From the NCBI RefSeq assembly GCF_053078305.1, contig NZ_CP166875.1: 64,000 nucleotides of DNA. The stretch is one strand, 5' to 3'. The DNA comes from a plasmid. Both the position numbers and the translations under genes were made by a program. This document shows positions 50,376 to 57,131 of this stretch, one piece after another. Within the stretch, counting starts at the first letter, position 1; the number at the start of each line of letters is the position of its first letter. The notes beneath the pieces were generated by a model. That model ran no database searches. It was not told where the DNA came from and saw nothing but the letters and a program-made list of their open reading frames with translations.

Positions 50376-51735
50376 ACCTCTTCTGGTTCTTTGTGCCGCT
50401 TTACTGACGGTCACACCTGCAGCGTCAGCGGATGTGAACAGCGACATGAACCAGTTCTTCAACAAGCTGGGCTTTGCCACCAATACCACCCAGGCCGGAG
50501 TCTGGCAGGGGCAGGCTGCCGGGTATGCCTATGGCGGTTCTCTGTATGCCCGTAATCAGGTCAGAAATATCCAGCTTATCTCCATGACACTGCCCGACAT
50601 CAATGCAGGGTGTGGTGGCATCGATGCCTATCTCGGCTCATTCAGTTTTATTAATGGCGAGCAGCTGCAGCGTTTTGTTAAGCAGATTATGAGTAACGCG
50701 ATGGGGTACTTTTTTGACCTTGCCCTGCAGACAACGGTGCCCGAAATCAAAACCGCGAAAGACTTCCTGCAGAAGATGGCGAATGACATTAACAGTATGA
50801 ACCTCAGCTCCTGTCAGGTGGCACAGGGGATTGTCGGAGGATTATTTCCTCAGACTCAGGTGTCACAGCAGAAGGTCTGTCAGGATATTGCAGGTGAGAG
50901 CAATATTTTCGCCGACTGGGCCGCGTCCCGTCAGGGCTGCACGGTTGGGGGGCAGTCATCGTCTGTTCGTGACAAGGCCAGTGACAAAGATAAGGAACGG
51001 GTGCTGAAGAACATAAATATCATCTGGGACTCGCTGTCCAAAAACAGGATGCTTGATGGTAACAAAGAGCTGAAAGAGTTCATTATGACGCTCACAGGTA
51101 CGCTGATTTTTGGTGAAGACAGCGAGATTACCCCCCTGCCGGCGCGTACCACTGACCGCGATATCCTCCGGGCGATTATGGAGGGGGGAACGGCAAAAAT
51201 TTACCACTGCAACGATTCGGACAAGTGTCTGAAGGTGGTGGCGGATGCAAATGTGACCATCGCCCGGGATAAAGCCCTGAAATCACAGATTACAAAACTG
51301 CTCACCAGTATTCAGAATAAAGCCGTGAGTGACACTCCGCTGGATGACAGGGAAAAAGGCTTCATTTCCAGCACCACCGTCCCCGTCTTTAAATATCTTA
51401 TTGACCCGCAGATGCTCGGTGTGTCCAGCAGCGTGGTTTACCAGCTGACGGACTATATCGGCTACGACATCATGCTCCAGTACATTCAGGAACTGCTTCA
51501 GCAGGCCCGGGCCATGATTGCCACCGGGAACTATCCACAGACCGTGCTGGACAGTGTGCTGGAGAATCTGAATCAGGCACAGCAACAGATTGCGGTTTTC
51601 CAGGGGCAGGTAAAGGTCCAGCAGGATGCACTGCTGGTTGTTGACCGTCAGATGAGCTACATGCGCCAGCAGCTGTCCGCCCGTATGCTCAGCCGTTACC
51701 AGAACAACTATCACTTCGGAGGGAGCACGCTGTGA
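50353..51735 (+). CDS. traH: Pilus assembly protein TraH
   Basis: 460-aa ORF with signal peptide, gene order. Confidence 0.92.
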   Translation: MAIMLRIKPLLVLCAALLTVTPAASADVNSDMNQFFNKLGFATNTTQAGVWQGQAAGYAYGGSLYARNQVRNIQLISMTLPDINAGCGGIDAYLGSFSFINGEQLQRFVKQIMSNAMGYFFDLALQTTVPEIKTAKDFLQKMANDINSMNLSSCQVAQGIVGGLFPQTQVSQQKVCQDIAGESNIFADWAASRQGCTVGGQSSSVRDKASDKDKERVLKNINIIWDSLSKNRMLDGNKELKEFIMTLTGTLIFGEDSEITPLPARTTDRDILRAIMEGGTAKIYHCNDSDKCLKVVADANVTIARDKALKSQITKLLTSIQNKAVSDTPLDDREKGFISSTTVPVFKYLIDPQMLGVSSSVVYQLTDYIGYDIMLQYIQELLQQARAMIATGNYPQTVLDSVLENLNQAQQQIAVFQGQVKVQQDALLVVDRQMSYMRQQLSARMLSRYQNNYHFGGSTL

Positions 51736-54575
51736 ATGAAGTCTATGTGATTGCCGGTGGTGAGTGGTTGCGCAATAACCTGAACGCCATTGCCGCTTTT
51801 ATGGGGACCCGGACGTGGGATTCCATTGAAAAAATTGCGCTCACATTATCTGTTCTCGCAGTGGCTGTGATGTGGGTACAACGGCACAACGTGATGGATT
51901 TGCTGGGCTGGGTGGCCGTGTTTGTGCTTATCAGCCTGCTGGTTAATGTCCGCACATCGGTGCAGATTATTGATAACAGTGACCTGGTTAAGGTTCACCG
52001 GGTGGACAATGTGCCGGTCGGTCTGGCGATGCCACTTTCACTGACGACCCGTATCGGGCATGCGATGGTGGCCGGCTATGAGATGGTGTTCGCTCAGCCG
52101 GACAGCGCCACCTACAGCAAGACAGGCATGCTGTTCGGGGCGAACCTGATTGTGAAAAGCACCGATTTCCTGTCCCGGAATCCGGAAATCATCAATCTGT
52201 TTCAGGACTACGTCCAGAACTGCGTGCTGGGTGATATTTACCTGAACCATAAATACACGCTGGAAGACCTGATGGCCTCCTCTGACCCGTACACCATAAT
52301 CTTTTCTCAGCCCAGCCCTTTACGTCAGGTGCCGAATAATAATTACAGTTTTCTGCAAAGCTCAGAGCCGTTTGTGTCCTGTAAGGACGCATCCGTCGGA
52401 CTGAAGGATAAGCTGAATTTTGATACGAATACCGGAGGCAAGACCTGGAATTATTATGTGCAGCAGATATTTGGCGGCAGGCCGGACCCTGACCTGTTAT
52501 TCAGACAACTGGTGAGTGACAGTTACAGTTATTTCTACGGCTCCAGCCAGTCTGCCAGCCAGATTATGCGCCAGAACGTCACCATGAATGCCCTGAAAGA
52601 GGGTATCACCAGTAATGCGGCCCGTAACGGTGATACCGCCAGCCTGGTGAATCTGGCCACCACCTCATCGATGGAGAAACAGCGTCTGGCACATGTCTCC
52701 ATTGGTCATGTGCTGATGCGAAACCTGCCGATGGTACAGACCATTCTGGTGGGCATTACTATTGGTATCTTCCCGCTCCTGGTGCTGGCTGCGGTCTTCA
52801 ACAAACTGACGCTGTCCGTCCTGAAAGGCTATGTGTTTGCCCTGATGTGGTTCCAGACTTGGCCGTTGCTGTATGCCATCCTGAACAGTGCCATGACATT
52901 CTATGCGAAGCAGAACGGGGCTCCGGTCGTGCTCTCTGAACTCTCTCAGATACAGCTGAAATACTCCGACCTGGCATCAACCGCAGGTTATCTTTCAGCA
53001 ATGATCCCCCCTCTGTCATGGATGATGGTACGAGGCCTTGGTGCCGGATTTTCCAGCGTATACAGCCACTTTGCGTCTTCTTCCATCACGCCAACCGCCA
53101 GTGCGGCAGGCAGTGTGGTTGACGGTAATTACTCCTACGGCAACATGCAGACGAATAACGTGAACGGCTTCAGCTGGAGCACCAACAGCACCACGTCATT
53201 TGGTCAGATGACGCACCAGACCGGTAGTGGTGCAACCGCCACGCAGACCCGTGACGGCAGTATGGTGATGGACGCCAGTGGGGCAATGTCCCGTTTGCCG
53301 GTTGGTATTAATGCAACGCGTCAGATTGCAGCAGCGCAACAGGAAATGGCCCGGGAGTCGATGAATAAGGCGGAAAGTGCCCTGCATGGTTTCAGCAGCA
53401 GTATTGCCAGTGCCTGGAACACACTCAGCCAGTTTGGCTCTAACCGGGGAAGCAGTGATTCAGTCACCAGTGGCGCTGACAGCACGATGAGCGCGCAGGA
53501 CTCCATGATGGCCAGCCGTATGCGCAGTGCGGTGGAAAGCTATGCGAAGGCGCATAATATCAGCGATGAGCAGGCGACAAGAGAACTGGCATCCAGAAGT
53601 ACGAGAGGTTCTGCGGGGATGTATGGTGATGCTCATGCTGAATGGGGGGTTAAACCTAAAATTCTTGGTGTTGGTGGTGGCGCAGGTGTCAGAGGTGGTG
53701 GTAGGACAAGTATTGACTGGAATGATGAGGATGCGCATCAGGCCAGCAGTGGTTCACGGGCCAGCCATGATGCCCGTCATGATATTGATGCCAGAGCTAC
53801 ACAAGACTTTAAAGAAGCAAGCGATTACTTTACCAGTCGCAAGGTCAGTGAATCCGGCAGCCATACTGACAATAATGCCGATTCCAGGGTGGACCAGCTT
53901 TCTGCAGCCCTGAACTCAGCGAAACAGAGTTACGACCAGTACACGACGAATATGACCCGCAGCCATGAATATGCTGAAATGGCCTCCCGTACTGAAAGCA
54001 TGAGTGGGCAGATGAGTGAAGACCTGTCACAACAGTTTGCACAGTATGTGATGAAACACGCGCCGCAGGATGCAGAAGCTATTCTGACAAACACCAGTTC
54101 ACCGGAGATTGCAGAACGTCGTCGGGCAATGGCCTGGTCTTTTGTTCAGGAACAGGTACAGCCTGGTGTTGATAACGCCTGGCGTGAATCCCGTGGCGAT
54201 ATCGGTAAAGGAATGGAGAGCGTACCTTCGGGCGGTGGCAGCCAGGATATTATTGCAGACCATCAGGGGCATCAGGGTATTATTGAGCAAAGAACGCAGG
54301 ACAGTAATATCCGTAACGATGTGAAGCAGCAGGTTGATAATATGGTCACAGAATATCGGGGCAATATCGGGGATACTCAGAACAGCATCCACGGCGAGGA
54401 AAATATTGTAAGAGGGCAGTATTCTGAACTGCAAAATCACCATAAAACAGAGGCATTATCTCAGAATAATAAATATAATGAAGAAAAATCAGCTCAGGAA
54501 GGAATGCCCGGTGCTGACAGCCCACAGGAACTTATGAACAGGGCAAAAGAGTATCAGGATAAGTATAAGCAATAA
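51732..54575 (+). CDS. traG: Mating-pair stabilization / entry-exclusion determinant TraG
   Basis: 947-aa ORF with N-terminal polytopic membrane domain, gene order. Confidence 0.93.
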   Translation: MNEVYVIAGGEWLRNNLNAIAAFMGTRTWDSIEKIALTLSVLAVAVMWVQRHNVMDLLGWVAVFVLISLLVNVRTSVQIIDNSDLVKVHRVDNVPVGLAMPLSLTTRIGHAMVAGYEMVFAQPDSATYSKTGMLFGANLIVKSTDFLSRNPEIINLFQDYVQNCVLGDIYLNHKYTLEDLMASSDPYTIIFSQPSPLRQVPNNNYSFLQSSEPFVSCKDASVGLKDKLNFDTNTGGKTWNYYVQQIFGGRPDPDLLFRQLVSDSYSYFYGSSQSASQIMRQNVTMNALKEGITSNAARNGDTASLVNLATTSSMEKQRLAHVSIGHVLMRNLPMVQTILVGITIGIFPLLVLAAVFNKLTLSVLKGYVFALMWFQTWPLLYAILNSAMTFYAKQNGAPVVLSELSQIQLKYSDLASTAGYLSAMIPPLSWMMVRGLGAGFSSVYSHFASSSITPTASAAGSVVDGNYSYGNMQTNNVNGFSWSTNSTTSFGQMTHQTGSGATATQTRDGSMVMDASGAMSRLPVGINATRQIAAAQQEMARESMNKAESALHGFSSSIASAWNTLSQFGSNRGSSDSVTSGADSTMSAQDSMMASRMRSAVESYAKAHNISDEQATRELASRSTRGSAGMYGDAHAEWGVKPKILGVGGGAGVRGGGRTSIDWNDEDAHQASSGSRASHDARHDIDARATQDFKEASDYFTSRKVSESGSHTDNNADSRVDQLSAALNSAKQSYDQYTTNMTRSHEYAEMASRTESMSGQMSEDLSQQFAQYVMKHAPQDAEAILTNTSSPEIAERRRAMAWSFVQEQVQPGVDNAWRESRGDIGKGMESVPSGGGSQDIIADHQGHQGIIEQRTQDSNIRNDVKQQVDNMVTEYRGNIGDTQNSIHGEENIVRGQYSELQNHHKTEALSQNNKYNEEKSAQEGMPGADSPQELMNRAKEYQDKYKQ

Positions 54576-54590: not shown

Positions 54591-55094
54591 ATGATAATGA
54601 AAAATTTAGCTCATGTTGCTCTGATAACTGTGATACAGCTCATTGCCTGTAATCTGGCTGATTGGGGGGGCGCTGAGACAGTTTTTATCCTGTGCTTTAT
54701 TGTACTATGGCAGGGATTGTTTATATGGTTGTTTTCTCAAATACGAAAAAAACGGCATGTGTCGGATGAGTTTAAATTCAGTAAAGGCGTTTGGTATATA
54801 CTGATGCCAGTATCTTCTTTATTCTCTCCGTTATTAAGCCTGATGACTTTTATCATTGGTACACTATACGAATTAAGGCGAGTTTGTGGTTGTGTAAGTG
54901 TAAGAGAATGGATGCAATCTCAGGTAAATGAAAACACCAATGAAGAATTGCATCTGGATTTTGATGATGTGAATTTTGATTATGTGGATTTTTATCGTAC
55001 TAATCCGGCAACAGGATTAGCTATGCATGGAGGATTTGATTCAGCAGGAAATACTTTTGGGACTTGTTGGCAGGACTATGATGATAGGCGATAA
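54591..55094 (+). CDS. traS: Entry exclusion inner-membrane protein TraS
   Basis: Hydrophobic low-GC ORF between traG and traT. Confidence 0.75.
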
Positions 55095-55122
55095 GAAAAC
55101 TGTAGCTTGTAATAAAGGTAAT

Positions 55123-55857
55123 TTGATGAAAACAAAAAAATTGATGATGGTTACCCTGGTCAGTTCCACTCTGGTCCTTTCAGGGTGTGGTGCGATGAGC
55201 ACAGCAATCAAGAAGCGTAATCTTGAAGTCAAAACTCAGATGAGTGAAACCATCTGGCTGGAGCCTTCCAGTGAACGCACCGTTTTCCTGCAAATCAAAA
55301 ACACATCTGACAAGGATATGAGTGGATTGCAGGCAAAAATCAGTGATGCCGTTAAAGCCAAAGGCTACCAGGTTGTGACCTCACCTGACAAGGCATACTA
55401 CTGGATCCAGGCCAATGTCCTGAAGGCAGACAAAATGGATTTGCGGGAGTCCCAGACCTGGCTGAACAGCGGTTATGAAGGTGCCATTGCCGGTGCAGCA
55501 TTGGGCACCGGCATCACAGGATATAACTCCAGCTCTGCCGGTGCGGCGCTGGGTGTAGGGATTGCCACAGGGTTGATTGGTATGGCTGCCGATGCAATGG
55601 TGGAGGATATCAACTACACCATGATCACGGATGTGCAGATTGCAGAGCGGACAACATCTAAAGTCAGAACTGATAATGTTGCTGCTCTCCGCCAGGGAAC
55701 CTCCGGTGCAAAAGTGCAGACCAGCACATCAACCGGAAATCAACATAAATACCAGACCCGTGTGGTATCTAATGCCAACAAGGTTAACCTGAAATTTGAA
55801 GAAGCGAAGCCTGTACTGGAAGACCAGCTGGCTAAATCCATCGCGAACATCCTGTAA
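55123..55857 (+). CDS. traT: Surface exclusion / serum resistance lipoprotein TraT
   Basis: Translation [47 protein letters not shown] recognised as TraT. Confidence 0.95.
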
Positions 55858-55880
55858 ATTACCCATCCGGCCCGGACAGA

Positions 55881-56177
55881 TTGTACCGGGCCGATATTCC
55901 TGCCCCGGATGAATACATGAACCGTGCAGAATCTCGTCTCTCGCAGGTACTCTTTCTGCTGGGCTATGACAGTGAAAAGTATCCTGAGCATGTATGTCGG
56001 GAGTTATTAAAAGAACTTTACCGGTTTGCTGATGCAACCGGAGATTCTGAACTGGCCATAGCCTGCCAGAGATACCTGACAGCACTGGAACCGTTCTCTG
56101 CATATGAGATCGGCGTAAGCGCAACAGAATATCTTCCTGTGAGTGAATATCCGACCGGACGTCGCAGAAGAAAATAG
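55881..56177 (+). CDS. Hypothetical protein, 98 aa (between traT and traD)
   Basis: ORF only. Confidence 0.45.
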   Translation: MYRADIPAPDEYMNRAESRLSQVLFLLGYDSEKYPEHVCRELLKELYRFADATGDSELAIACQRYLTALEPFSAYEIGVSATEYLPVSEYPTGRRRRK

Positions 56178-56344
56178 CTGACGCCTCGCGTTGCTCGTTG
56201 TCCAACCCCGGGAAGTAACAAAATAAATTTTGTCACTTCCCGGCGTTTCCGAAATAAATATGAGAACACTGAACGGTTGTGCAAATTCTTTGTGCGACCG
56301 TGAAGTGTTGCCGGCGAAGCCGGAAGCTTCCGGAGAAAGTCATT

Positions 56345-57076
56345 ATGACATCAGACAATATCGCTGAATATGTTGGTGAGAATAATCAATTTACTGAGAA
56401 GCCTGTAACTGAATACTCCCCGGTGATACAGGATAATACAGCGACCACAAAAGATTATCTGTACAGCAATAATATTGATACTGACCTTTTAGTGGTTATC
56501 GGAGGGCTTATTGTTATATTGTTTCTCATGATGCTTGTCATGTACTTTATTAATTCTCTCAGGCATAAGGAATTAACTGAAATACTGACAAAAATATCTT
56601 TTCCTGAGAAATCCGGGAGCAATCCGCTTAAGCCGGAAGAGGGCCGCTGTAATTTGTTGTCCCTGTGTGTGCTGGCCCCGGTATTCTGTACCCCCAAAAA
56701 ACTGGCAGAAGTCTCCAGACAGATCATCGTGACCAGTGCGAAGGAAATTGCCTGGACGCCCGGGAGTAGCCGTATTGATGGTGAGCAGGAAGAAAATATT
56801 ACCTGGTCTCTGTCGTCACAGACTCATGCCGATAAATACGATCTCATCAATAAAACATCCCGTGTTTCTCCTGACAGTGGCCACTTTTATGAACCGGGCA
56901 CGGCTCTGGATTATCGTGAGCGGGTACGCCTTTTTGTTCAGATCCAGTATTCACACGAGAGTGACTGGTCTGAAATATTGCGCCTGACTGATATCGTGCT
57001 GGAAAAAGTTTCTTCCGGCAGACCAGCAGGCGGCTATCACCACCGGTATACAGGGTATACATGGTTTGTTCTGTGA
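56345..57076 (+). CDS. Hypothetical single-pass membrane protein, about 243 aa (between traT and traD)
   Basis: ORF 56279..57076; start MTSDNIAEYVGEN at 56345; TM helix LLVVIGGLIVILFLMMLVMYFI. Confidence 0.55.
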   Translation: MTSDNIAEYVGENNQFTEKPVTEYSPVIQDNTATTKDYLYSNNIDTDLLVVIGGLIVILFLMMLVMYFINSLRHKELTEILTKISFPEKSGSNPLKPEEGRCNLLSLCVLAPVFCTPKKLAEVSRQIIVTSAKEIAWTPGSSRIDGEQEENITWSLSSQTHADKYDLINKTSRVSPDSGHFYEPGTALDYRERVRLFVQIQYSHESDWSEILRLTDIVLEKVSSGRPAGGYHHRYTGYTWFVL

Positions 57077-57131
57077 ATGTATTCCACACCGCTCTTTTCT
57101 GCTCTGTACCTGACTTTACCGGAGTTTCATC

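Follow-up and report, generated by a model that had tools for sequence, protein, structure and literature searches.

Two open reading frames in a variable slot between traT and traD of an F-like conjugative plasmid

What occupies the interval between the exclusion gene traT and the coupling-protein gene traD in F-like plasmids, and does it belong to the transfer machinery? The question arises from a 64,000-nucleotide stretch of plasmid contig NZ_CP166875.1 (assembly GCF_053078305.1), hereafter the window, in which traT and traD are separated by 1274 bp that hold two open reading frames (ORFs) on the tra strand. An earlier sequence-only reading of the window had described an extra segment of about 1.3 kb with a 98-amino-acid (aa) ORF and a single-pass membrane protein ORF of about 243 aa, and it was right on the size and on both ORFs: they stand in the ORF list, the larger has one hydrophobic segment, and the RefSeq calls for NZ_CP045714, an IncFIA/FIC plasmid from human faeces that is 99.9% identical to the window over the traT-traD segment, fit an 86-aa ORF1 and a 243-aa ORF2, each annotated as ‘hypothetical protein’. 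ORF1 (55917-56177, plus strand, ATG at 55917) encodes 86 aa, or 98 aa when read from an upstream TTG at 55881, and ORF2 (56345-57076, plus strand, ATG at 56345) encodes 243 aa in a frame that is open from a GTG at 56279 (a 265-aa ORF, 56279-57076). The explanation we favour, and consider fairly probable, is that this segment represents one of the states of a variable accessory slot in the F-like tra operon, carrying two independent and real genes that are uncharacterised, with ORF2 acting as an accessory near the transfer machinery.

The traT-traD gap is a variable, recombination-prone cargo slot, ordinary for F-like plasmids, and we saw at least eight states of it. The slot is empty in F (locus L017) and pMAR7 (L003), with a gap of 252 bp in each; R100 (L007) has OrfE only, this being the UniRef name (Q99389) of its ORF2 counterpart; and the window has ORF1 and ORF2. 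In three loci (L020-L022) an ORF1 homologue is accompanied by an ORF for a 37-aa membrane peptide with a strong Shine-Dalgarno sequence, and in L019 the same peptide ORF accompanies a truncated ORF1 homologue. Plasmid pYLMB49a (L018) holds a remote ORF2 homologue, a DUF2726 gene and vapCB, a further plasmid (L023) carries a lipobox ORF (MLIRKCIVLLICFLIQGC...) after traT together with an N-shortened ORF2, and NZ_CP024291 (L014, 1731-2998), which has neither traS nor traT, has ORF2 after a minus-strand heavy-metal-binding-domain (YbjQ-like) gene and a 262-aa hypothetical ORF that fill the interval from traG. A similar minus-strand ORF of 102 aa stands where traS would be in L008. Common to all slot states is a 148-bp spacer, with a strong stem-loop in most of them, L019 being the exception. 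The 37-aa ORF, whose single-transmembrane (TM) product reads MS(I/V)F(K/E)ILDQMFPGNP...LLRKRK, lies at the position of ORF2 in plasmids that have an ORF1 homologue and no ORF2 (L019:4365-4478; L020 ~5440-5560) and is preceded by AAGAAGGA; it occurs in 35 plasmids of PLSDB, 30 of them from Salmonella and including virulence plasmids at about 74% identity. The unique part of the F spacer looks like an internally deleted copy of this peptide cassette. The vapCB pair of pYLMB49a is located upstream of traD, unlike the minus-strand vapBC pair that lies between traD and traI in F (L017:5967-6592) and pMAR7 (L003:5380-6005). R100 and about 1870 plasmids have ORF2 without ORF1, and L020-L022 have the ORF1 homologue without ORF2, so the two are not an obligate pair; the obligatory co-occurrence expected of a two-gene toxin-antitoxin or defence module is not found, and the anti-phage defence models of PADLOC yielded no family for either ORF at E values up to 1.

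The identity, distribution and synteny of ORF2 can be read directly from its relatives. The traT-traD gap of R100 contains, at the same position and on the same strand, a 245-aa ORF (NC_002134, 75462-76199; WP_000199905.1) to which ORF2 is identical at 210 of 242 residues (87%, E 9e-163) over its full length. A published description of pEntH10407 labels a truncated ORF just upstream of traD as YhfA, highly homologous to YhfA of R100, and states that F has no ORF similar to YhfA (PMC2762410); going by the position of the pEntH10407 ORF, this YhfA is apparently the R100 traT-traD ORF. Some part of the 1274-bp segment matches 3821 PLSDB plasmids, mostly via the conserved 148-bp spacer, and the body of ORF2 is present in 1885 of these plasmids with the shared junction (~49%), at a coverage of at least 80% in 1815; of 27 full-length matches sampled at even spacing, all 27 have an annotated coding sequence. 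The ORF2 sequence is found in 1200 of 5426 complete E. coli genomes (22%), with 1372 of 1376 places on plasmids. The whole segment including ORF1, by comparison, is present in only 11 PLSDB plasmids, and the ORF1-specific part in 20 of the 5426 genomes. By these counts only ORF1 is rare; ORF2 is common, and its sequence has long been on record. The earlier claim that the segment is unusual, in a place where F-like plasmids normally have only a short spacer, thus holds for F and for ORF1 and fails for ORF2; the comparison with F and R100 that accompanied the claim, once run, finds both ORFs missing from F and the ORF2 counterpart present in R100.

More distant homologues of ORF2 adjoin the 3′ side of traT on the same strand in L008 (~60% identity over the full length), L010 (47%) and pYLMB49a (NZ_CP073954), where an intact 230-aa protein (WP_000235172.1) is 35% identical over ORF2 residues 103-240 (E 2e-25). 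ORF2 lies directly 3′ of traT in every lineage that has traT, and L014 has ORF2 with neither traS nor traT. When 1.84 billion representative proteins were searched exhaustively with a profile, 55 matches came back, and because all 55 belong to the ORF2 family, this family appears confined to the F-like transfer regions of Enterobacteriaceae; the one remote relative led to pYLMB49a and gave no functional clue. Truncated ORF2 protein clusters had at one point been read as frequent decay, a reading that was dropped once the single case looked at, P0028, proved to be an artefact of a contig end, and L009 was ignored as an assembly ridden with frameshifts.

By its substitution pattern, ORF2 evolves as a coding gene, far beyond chance. 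The window compared with the R100 and Klebsiella alleles (Nei-Gojobori) gives a ratio of non-synonymous to synonymous substitution rates (dN/dS) of about 0.20, with 35.5 non-synonymous and 43.5 synonymous changes, and the differences from R100 fall at codon positions in the proportions 21/15/47 (47 of 83 at third positions), a depletion of non-synonymous change with a binomial P of ~1e-9. The corresponding ratios are 0.04 for traT, 0.05-0.07 for traD and, against R100, 0.10 for traG, with an overall range of 0.04-0.16 for the three genes. The protein is modular. Its variable N-module (56345-56644, plus strand) comprises an acidic tail (residues 1-46, calculated net charge -6), the sole hydrophobic segment by hydropathy (residues 48-69, 56486-56551), which would form a TM helix, and a basic juxtamembrane linker whose basic residues come just after the helix. 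The conserved C-module (56645-57076, plus strand; dN/dS 0.18-0.26) has about 140 aa and is predicted to be cytoplasmic, the whole region C-terminal to the helix amounting to ~140-170 residues. Residues in W.PG.SRIDG.Q, RL..IQ and AGG...GYTW are invariant as far as the 35%-identical pYLMB49a homologue, and no lipobox or N-terminal signal sequence is visible.

The two modules have different histories. Between L008 and R100 the flanks are 97-100% identical, and flanks and C-module together 92-100%, whereas codons ~5-100 have 35-48% nucleotide identity and are effectively unalignable. Between the window and R100 this is reversed: the N half has a synonymous divergence (dS) of 0.055, with 95 nearly identical codons, and the C half a dS of ~0.5. 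The junction falls at CNLLSLCVLAPVFC, a stretch with hardly any variation among close family members, and at least four allele types of the N-module share a common architecture. On these alignments, the N-module and the C-module recombine separately. From the charge pattern, which recurs in the other allele types, the positive-inside rule suggests an N-out, C-in topology.

ORF1 was initially read as a chance mosaic ORF, because only its first 13 residues recur in a colicin-like fusion ORF of pO113-type plasmids, its 3′ end can be loosely aligned to the traT-proximal hairpin of F, and the first searches returned near-identical copies only. We rejected this reading because tblastn and profile searches recovered diverged homologues at the same position, directly after traT, with protein-level constraint: a truncated 51-aa form in the mouse E. 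coli plasmids of L019 and an intact 85-aa form in L020-L022. Against L020, ORF1 has 40% identity, with a proportion of synonymous differences of 0.75, which is saturated, and a proportion of non-synonymous differences of 0.45 (45.7 synonymous versus 88.3 non-synonymous changes, P = 0.0036); against L019, its first 23 codons have 11.2 synonymous versus 7.8 non-synonymous changes (omega ~0.08, P = 0.001). The conserved features are MNRAE.RLSQ.L.LLGYD..KYP, a central LL....A.A.G..EL..AC and a basic tail. An apparent further variant of ORF1 (P0104, 82% identical) was uninformative, as it results from compensating frameshifts in a read-level assembly. The ORF1 product lacks TM segments, ends in a basic tail and shows neither a lipobox nor an N-terminal signal sequence; it is predicted to be a small soluble helical protein, the single-sequence AlphaFold2 model (mean predicted local distance difference test (pLDDT) score 65.6) having helices at residues 3-16, 24-41 and 44-57.

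Several properties of ORF1 would suit a relic or an annotation artefact. Its length alone is marginal, with 220 of 5000 shuffles (4.4%) of a 343-bp segment giving an ORF of at least 86 codons; there is almost no diversity among close copies; and in some relatives it is truncated, interrupted or replaced. In L006 (CP027674, 98306-102119) it is broken at codon 72 (window ~56124-56131) by an insertion of ~2.5 kb, with eight query bases (267-274) that match on both sides, as for the target duplication of a transposable element. The earlier note had named degenerate, frameshifted remnants in relatives as what would overturn its suggestion; we found such remnants in minor lineages only (a frameshifted ORF2 in L012, and ORF1 truncated in L019 and interrupted in L006), and most copies are intact. 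The complementary strand of this region contains a 158-aa ORF (55729-56205, minus strand) that covers ORF1 in full as well as the 3′ end of traT and is rich in R, H, C and P; it is probably spurious, given this odd composition and its overlap with a gene that is well supported.

ORF1 is linked to an unusual neighbour. The traT of the window (55126-55857, plus strand; NCBIfam TraT equivalog, 520 bits) is a divergent allele, with a dS of ~1.3 against the F-type (pMAR7), R100 and Klebsiella genes, and the other ORF1 carriers examined (L012, L013) have TraT proteins 98.8-100% identical to it. ORF1 tracks this traT allele and not the TraS family, the window having an R100-type TraS and L013 an F/pMAR7-type TraS. 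ORF1 would then belong to the downstream flank of a divergent traT lineage, having arrived in the plasmid together with that allele. The window-type traT also exists as an orphan in about 43 pO113-like plasmids of Shiga toxin-producing E. coli, of IncFIB/IncI type, where TraT is 99.2% identical to that of the window. These plasmids (L004:1769-2931; L005) retain the first 120 bp after traT (window 55126-55977 in all), and the ORF1 ATG opens a 123-aa ORF, annotated as ‘colicin-like pore-forming protein’, that shares only the first 13 residues with ORF1.

Several predicted stem-loops and a conserved spacer separate these genes. A terminator-like stem-loop with no clear T run lies right after the traT stop codon (55868-55893, plus strand; -19.9 kcal/mol, z -3.35), and a related hairpin is present at the same place in L019 and L020. 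The 148-bp conserved spacer (56178-56325, plus strand) has a match of ~93% in the 3821 PLSDB plasmids, is kept in nearly all F-like plasmids and aligns with F, pMAR7, R100 and a Klebsiella plasmid; it contains a strong stem-loop (56204-56247, plus strand; -22.2 kcal/mol, z -5.4). A third stem-loop (56298-56333, plus strand; -19.1 kcal/mol, z -2.0) straddles the left edge of the ORF2 cassette and extends to the Shine-Dalgarno-like GGAG (56331-56334) of ORF2. Homology to F and pMAR7 stops at 56325, within this stem-loop, which sets the left edge of the cassette. At the right edge, F homology resumes ~13 nt before the traD ATG, inside the 55-bp gap between ORF2 and traD (57077-57131, plus strand) that includes the traD ribosome-binding region. 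An Rfam scan of 55000-57600 found nothing relevant.

Our favoured explanation combines these observations as follows. ORF2 is an allele of the R100 OrfE gene, and its product would be a bitopic inner-membrane protein with a putatively periplasmic acidic N-tail, one helix and a conserved domain of ~140 aa in the cytoplasm. Lying on the tra strand, ORF1 and ORF2 would be transcribed with the tra operon, with read-through from traT. ORF2 may hold its cytoplasmic domain at the membrane beside the transfer machinery, either TraD or the type IV secretion system, where it would modulate transfer or exclusion and be required for neither. ORF1 and ORF2 are probably accessories that the transfer operon can do without, since F lacks both.

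Several results weigh against this explanation. Location in the tra operon is no proof of a transfer role, as vapBC and DUF2726 genes share the slot. The proposed topology is read from the charge distribution alone, and AlphaFold2 with an 11-sequence alignment of ORF2 reached a pLDDT of 39.5, with confidence for the TM helix only. Neither ORF1 nor ORF2, nor the ORF2 family profile, has a match in Pfam, NCBIfam, PADLOC, PHROGs or the PDB, and a Foldseek search of the ORF1 model against the PDB and AFDB50 returned self-matches or generic helical bundles only. The Shine-Dalgarno sequence of ORF1 is at best weak and none is visible for the L020 homologue, a scan for promoters and terminators found sites no more often than in shuffled sequence and no promoter-like signal above expectation, and the predicted stem-loops between traT and both ORFs could limit their expression. 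ORF2 is not intact everywhere: in two large pCFSAN0041xx plasmids with an altered slot it is split by a 14-bp deletion at the boundary of tail and TM helix (L012, NZ_CP012501, 2922-3705) or shortened to 217 aa by loss of the first 26 codons (L023, NZ_CP012500, 1822-2433). Literature searches on the traT-traD ORF, yhfA and orfE returned only the pEntH10407 paper and no experimental work on either gene.

The main alternative is that ORF1 and ORF2 are passenger cargo unrelated to conjugation, serving for example in stress, phage-related functions or fitness, in a permissive slot of the tra operon. It holds this place because other clearly unrelated genes occupy the same slot: DUF2726 and vapCB in L018, the lipobox ORF in L023, the colicin-like fragment in L004 and the 37-aa membrane peptide in L019 and L020. 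It also agrees with the coupling protein, in that the presence or absence of ORF2 is uncorrelated with TraD sequence, and the window TraD is 97-99% identical to its counterparts in plasmids of both kinds. Typical cargo would, however, be expected in other contexts too, whereas the ORF2 family is found only in F-like tra regions, at a constant position and orientation, and supplied all 55 matches of the profile search; the lack of any PADLOC or PHROGs match for either ORF likewise speaks against it. We regard passenger cargo as unlikely.

Distinctly less likely, in our view, is that ORF2, alone or together with ORF1, adds a determinant of exclusion or mating specificity to TraS and TraT, with the variable extracytoplasmic N-module setting allele specificity. 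The most suggestive point in its favour is that the N-module comes in sharply bounded, unalignable allele types within nearly identical DNA, a cassette-like pattern that resembles the specificity regions of TraS, TraG, TraT and TraN; the constant place of ORF2 directly 3′ of traT and the co-inheritance of ORF1 with one particular traT allele fit it as well. But neither protein is similar to TraS, TraT or other known exclusion proteins, ORF2 has no lipobox or signal peptide, and the same N-type of ORF2 is found in the company of three unrelated TraS families. F lacks both ORFs, and traS and traT alone give it full exclusion. The N-tail has only ~46 residues, so that recombination, together with a membrane anchor under little constraint, could be enough to explain its variability, and pO113-type plasmids keep the traT allele with ORF1 destroyed. 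A bolder form, in which OrfE/YhfA (ORF2) is a third self/non-self determinant of F-like conjugation, its periplasmic N-module setting specificity, its cytoplasmic domain signalling to TraD or the secretion system, and ORF1 a co-evolving partner of the TraT lineage, we hold to be more doubtful still.

Least probable of all is that ORF1, ORF2 or both have no function and are relics or artefacts of annotation, for which the marginal length, poor ribosome-binding site and low diversity of ORF1, the disrupted ORF2 of the pCFSAN0041xx plasmids and its absence from F could be cited, set against an ORF2 that is under constraint, is intact in nearly all sampled plasmids and still has an unbroken homologue in this place at 35% identity, and an ORF1 homologue of 85 versus 86 aa that is intact at 40% identity with synonymous sites saturated and non-synonymous change depleted.

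The surrounding genes of the window, by the ORF list, are those of a tra operon: traG (51732-54575, plus strand), an ORF in the TraS position that is an R100-type TraS (54591-55094, plus strand), and, beyond the slot, traD (57132-59330, plus strand), whose stop codon is overlapped by the start of traI at 59330. The C-terminal motif of the window TraS (55002-55091) occurs twice in a 297-aa protein in the TraS position of pYLMB49a (L018:3962-4855; L015:2-355), and neither of these two proteins has a family match. The C-terminal region of TraD contains a (QQP)n repeat (58992-59051).

Set beside known systems, the accessory genes that we favour have their closest counterpart in R100 OrfE, with which ORF2 shares the N-tail, TM helix and C-domain architecture, the W.PG.SRIDG and GYTW motifs, the traT-traD position and the tra strand, and thus family membership. 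It differs in that its C-module is a distinct allele (dS ~0.5, 31-34 non-synonymous changes) and that, at 243 versus 245 aa, the C-terminal ends diverge. This match gives a name and not a mechanism. The pYLMB49a protein WP_000235172.1 is a remote member of the same family with the same layout, directly after traT, but is followed by DUF2726 and vapCB before traD and lacks the three cysteines that all close family members share. The genes for TraS and TraT lie close to the slot in the tra operon and share its strand; ORF2 is predicted to be located in the membrane like TraS and has allelic, cassette-like variation as exclusion genes do. TraS is a multi-pass hydrophobic protein and TraT an outer-membrane lipoprotein, whereas ORF2 is predicted to be bitopic with a large soluble domain and ORF1 to be soluble, and neither has sequence similarity to TraS or TraT or falls within their profiles. 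The small Trb proteins are accessory products of the F tra operon; laboratory transfer does not require them, in many cases they are small membrane proteins, and their presence varies between F-like plasmids. ORF1 and ORF2 are likewise encoded inside the operon and variably present, but have no homology to them, and ORF2 is larger, with a conserved domain that would be cytoplasmic.

Both genes are already known as sequences, ORF2 by name in R100 and both as ‘hypothetical protein’ in hundreds of records, and the segment reveals no new kind of system: what it contains is a hypothetical gene catalogued long ago and, beside it, a small gene that is rare. Bacterial conjugation has the F/R100 transfer operon as its reference system, yet this operon holds a conserved membrane-protein gene that is still unstudied, and establishing the role of ORF2 would add a missing entry to the inventory of parts of plasmids that spread much of the antibiotic resistance in Enterobacteriaceae.

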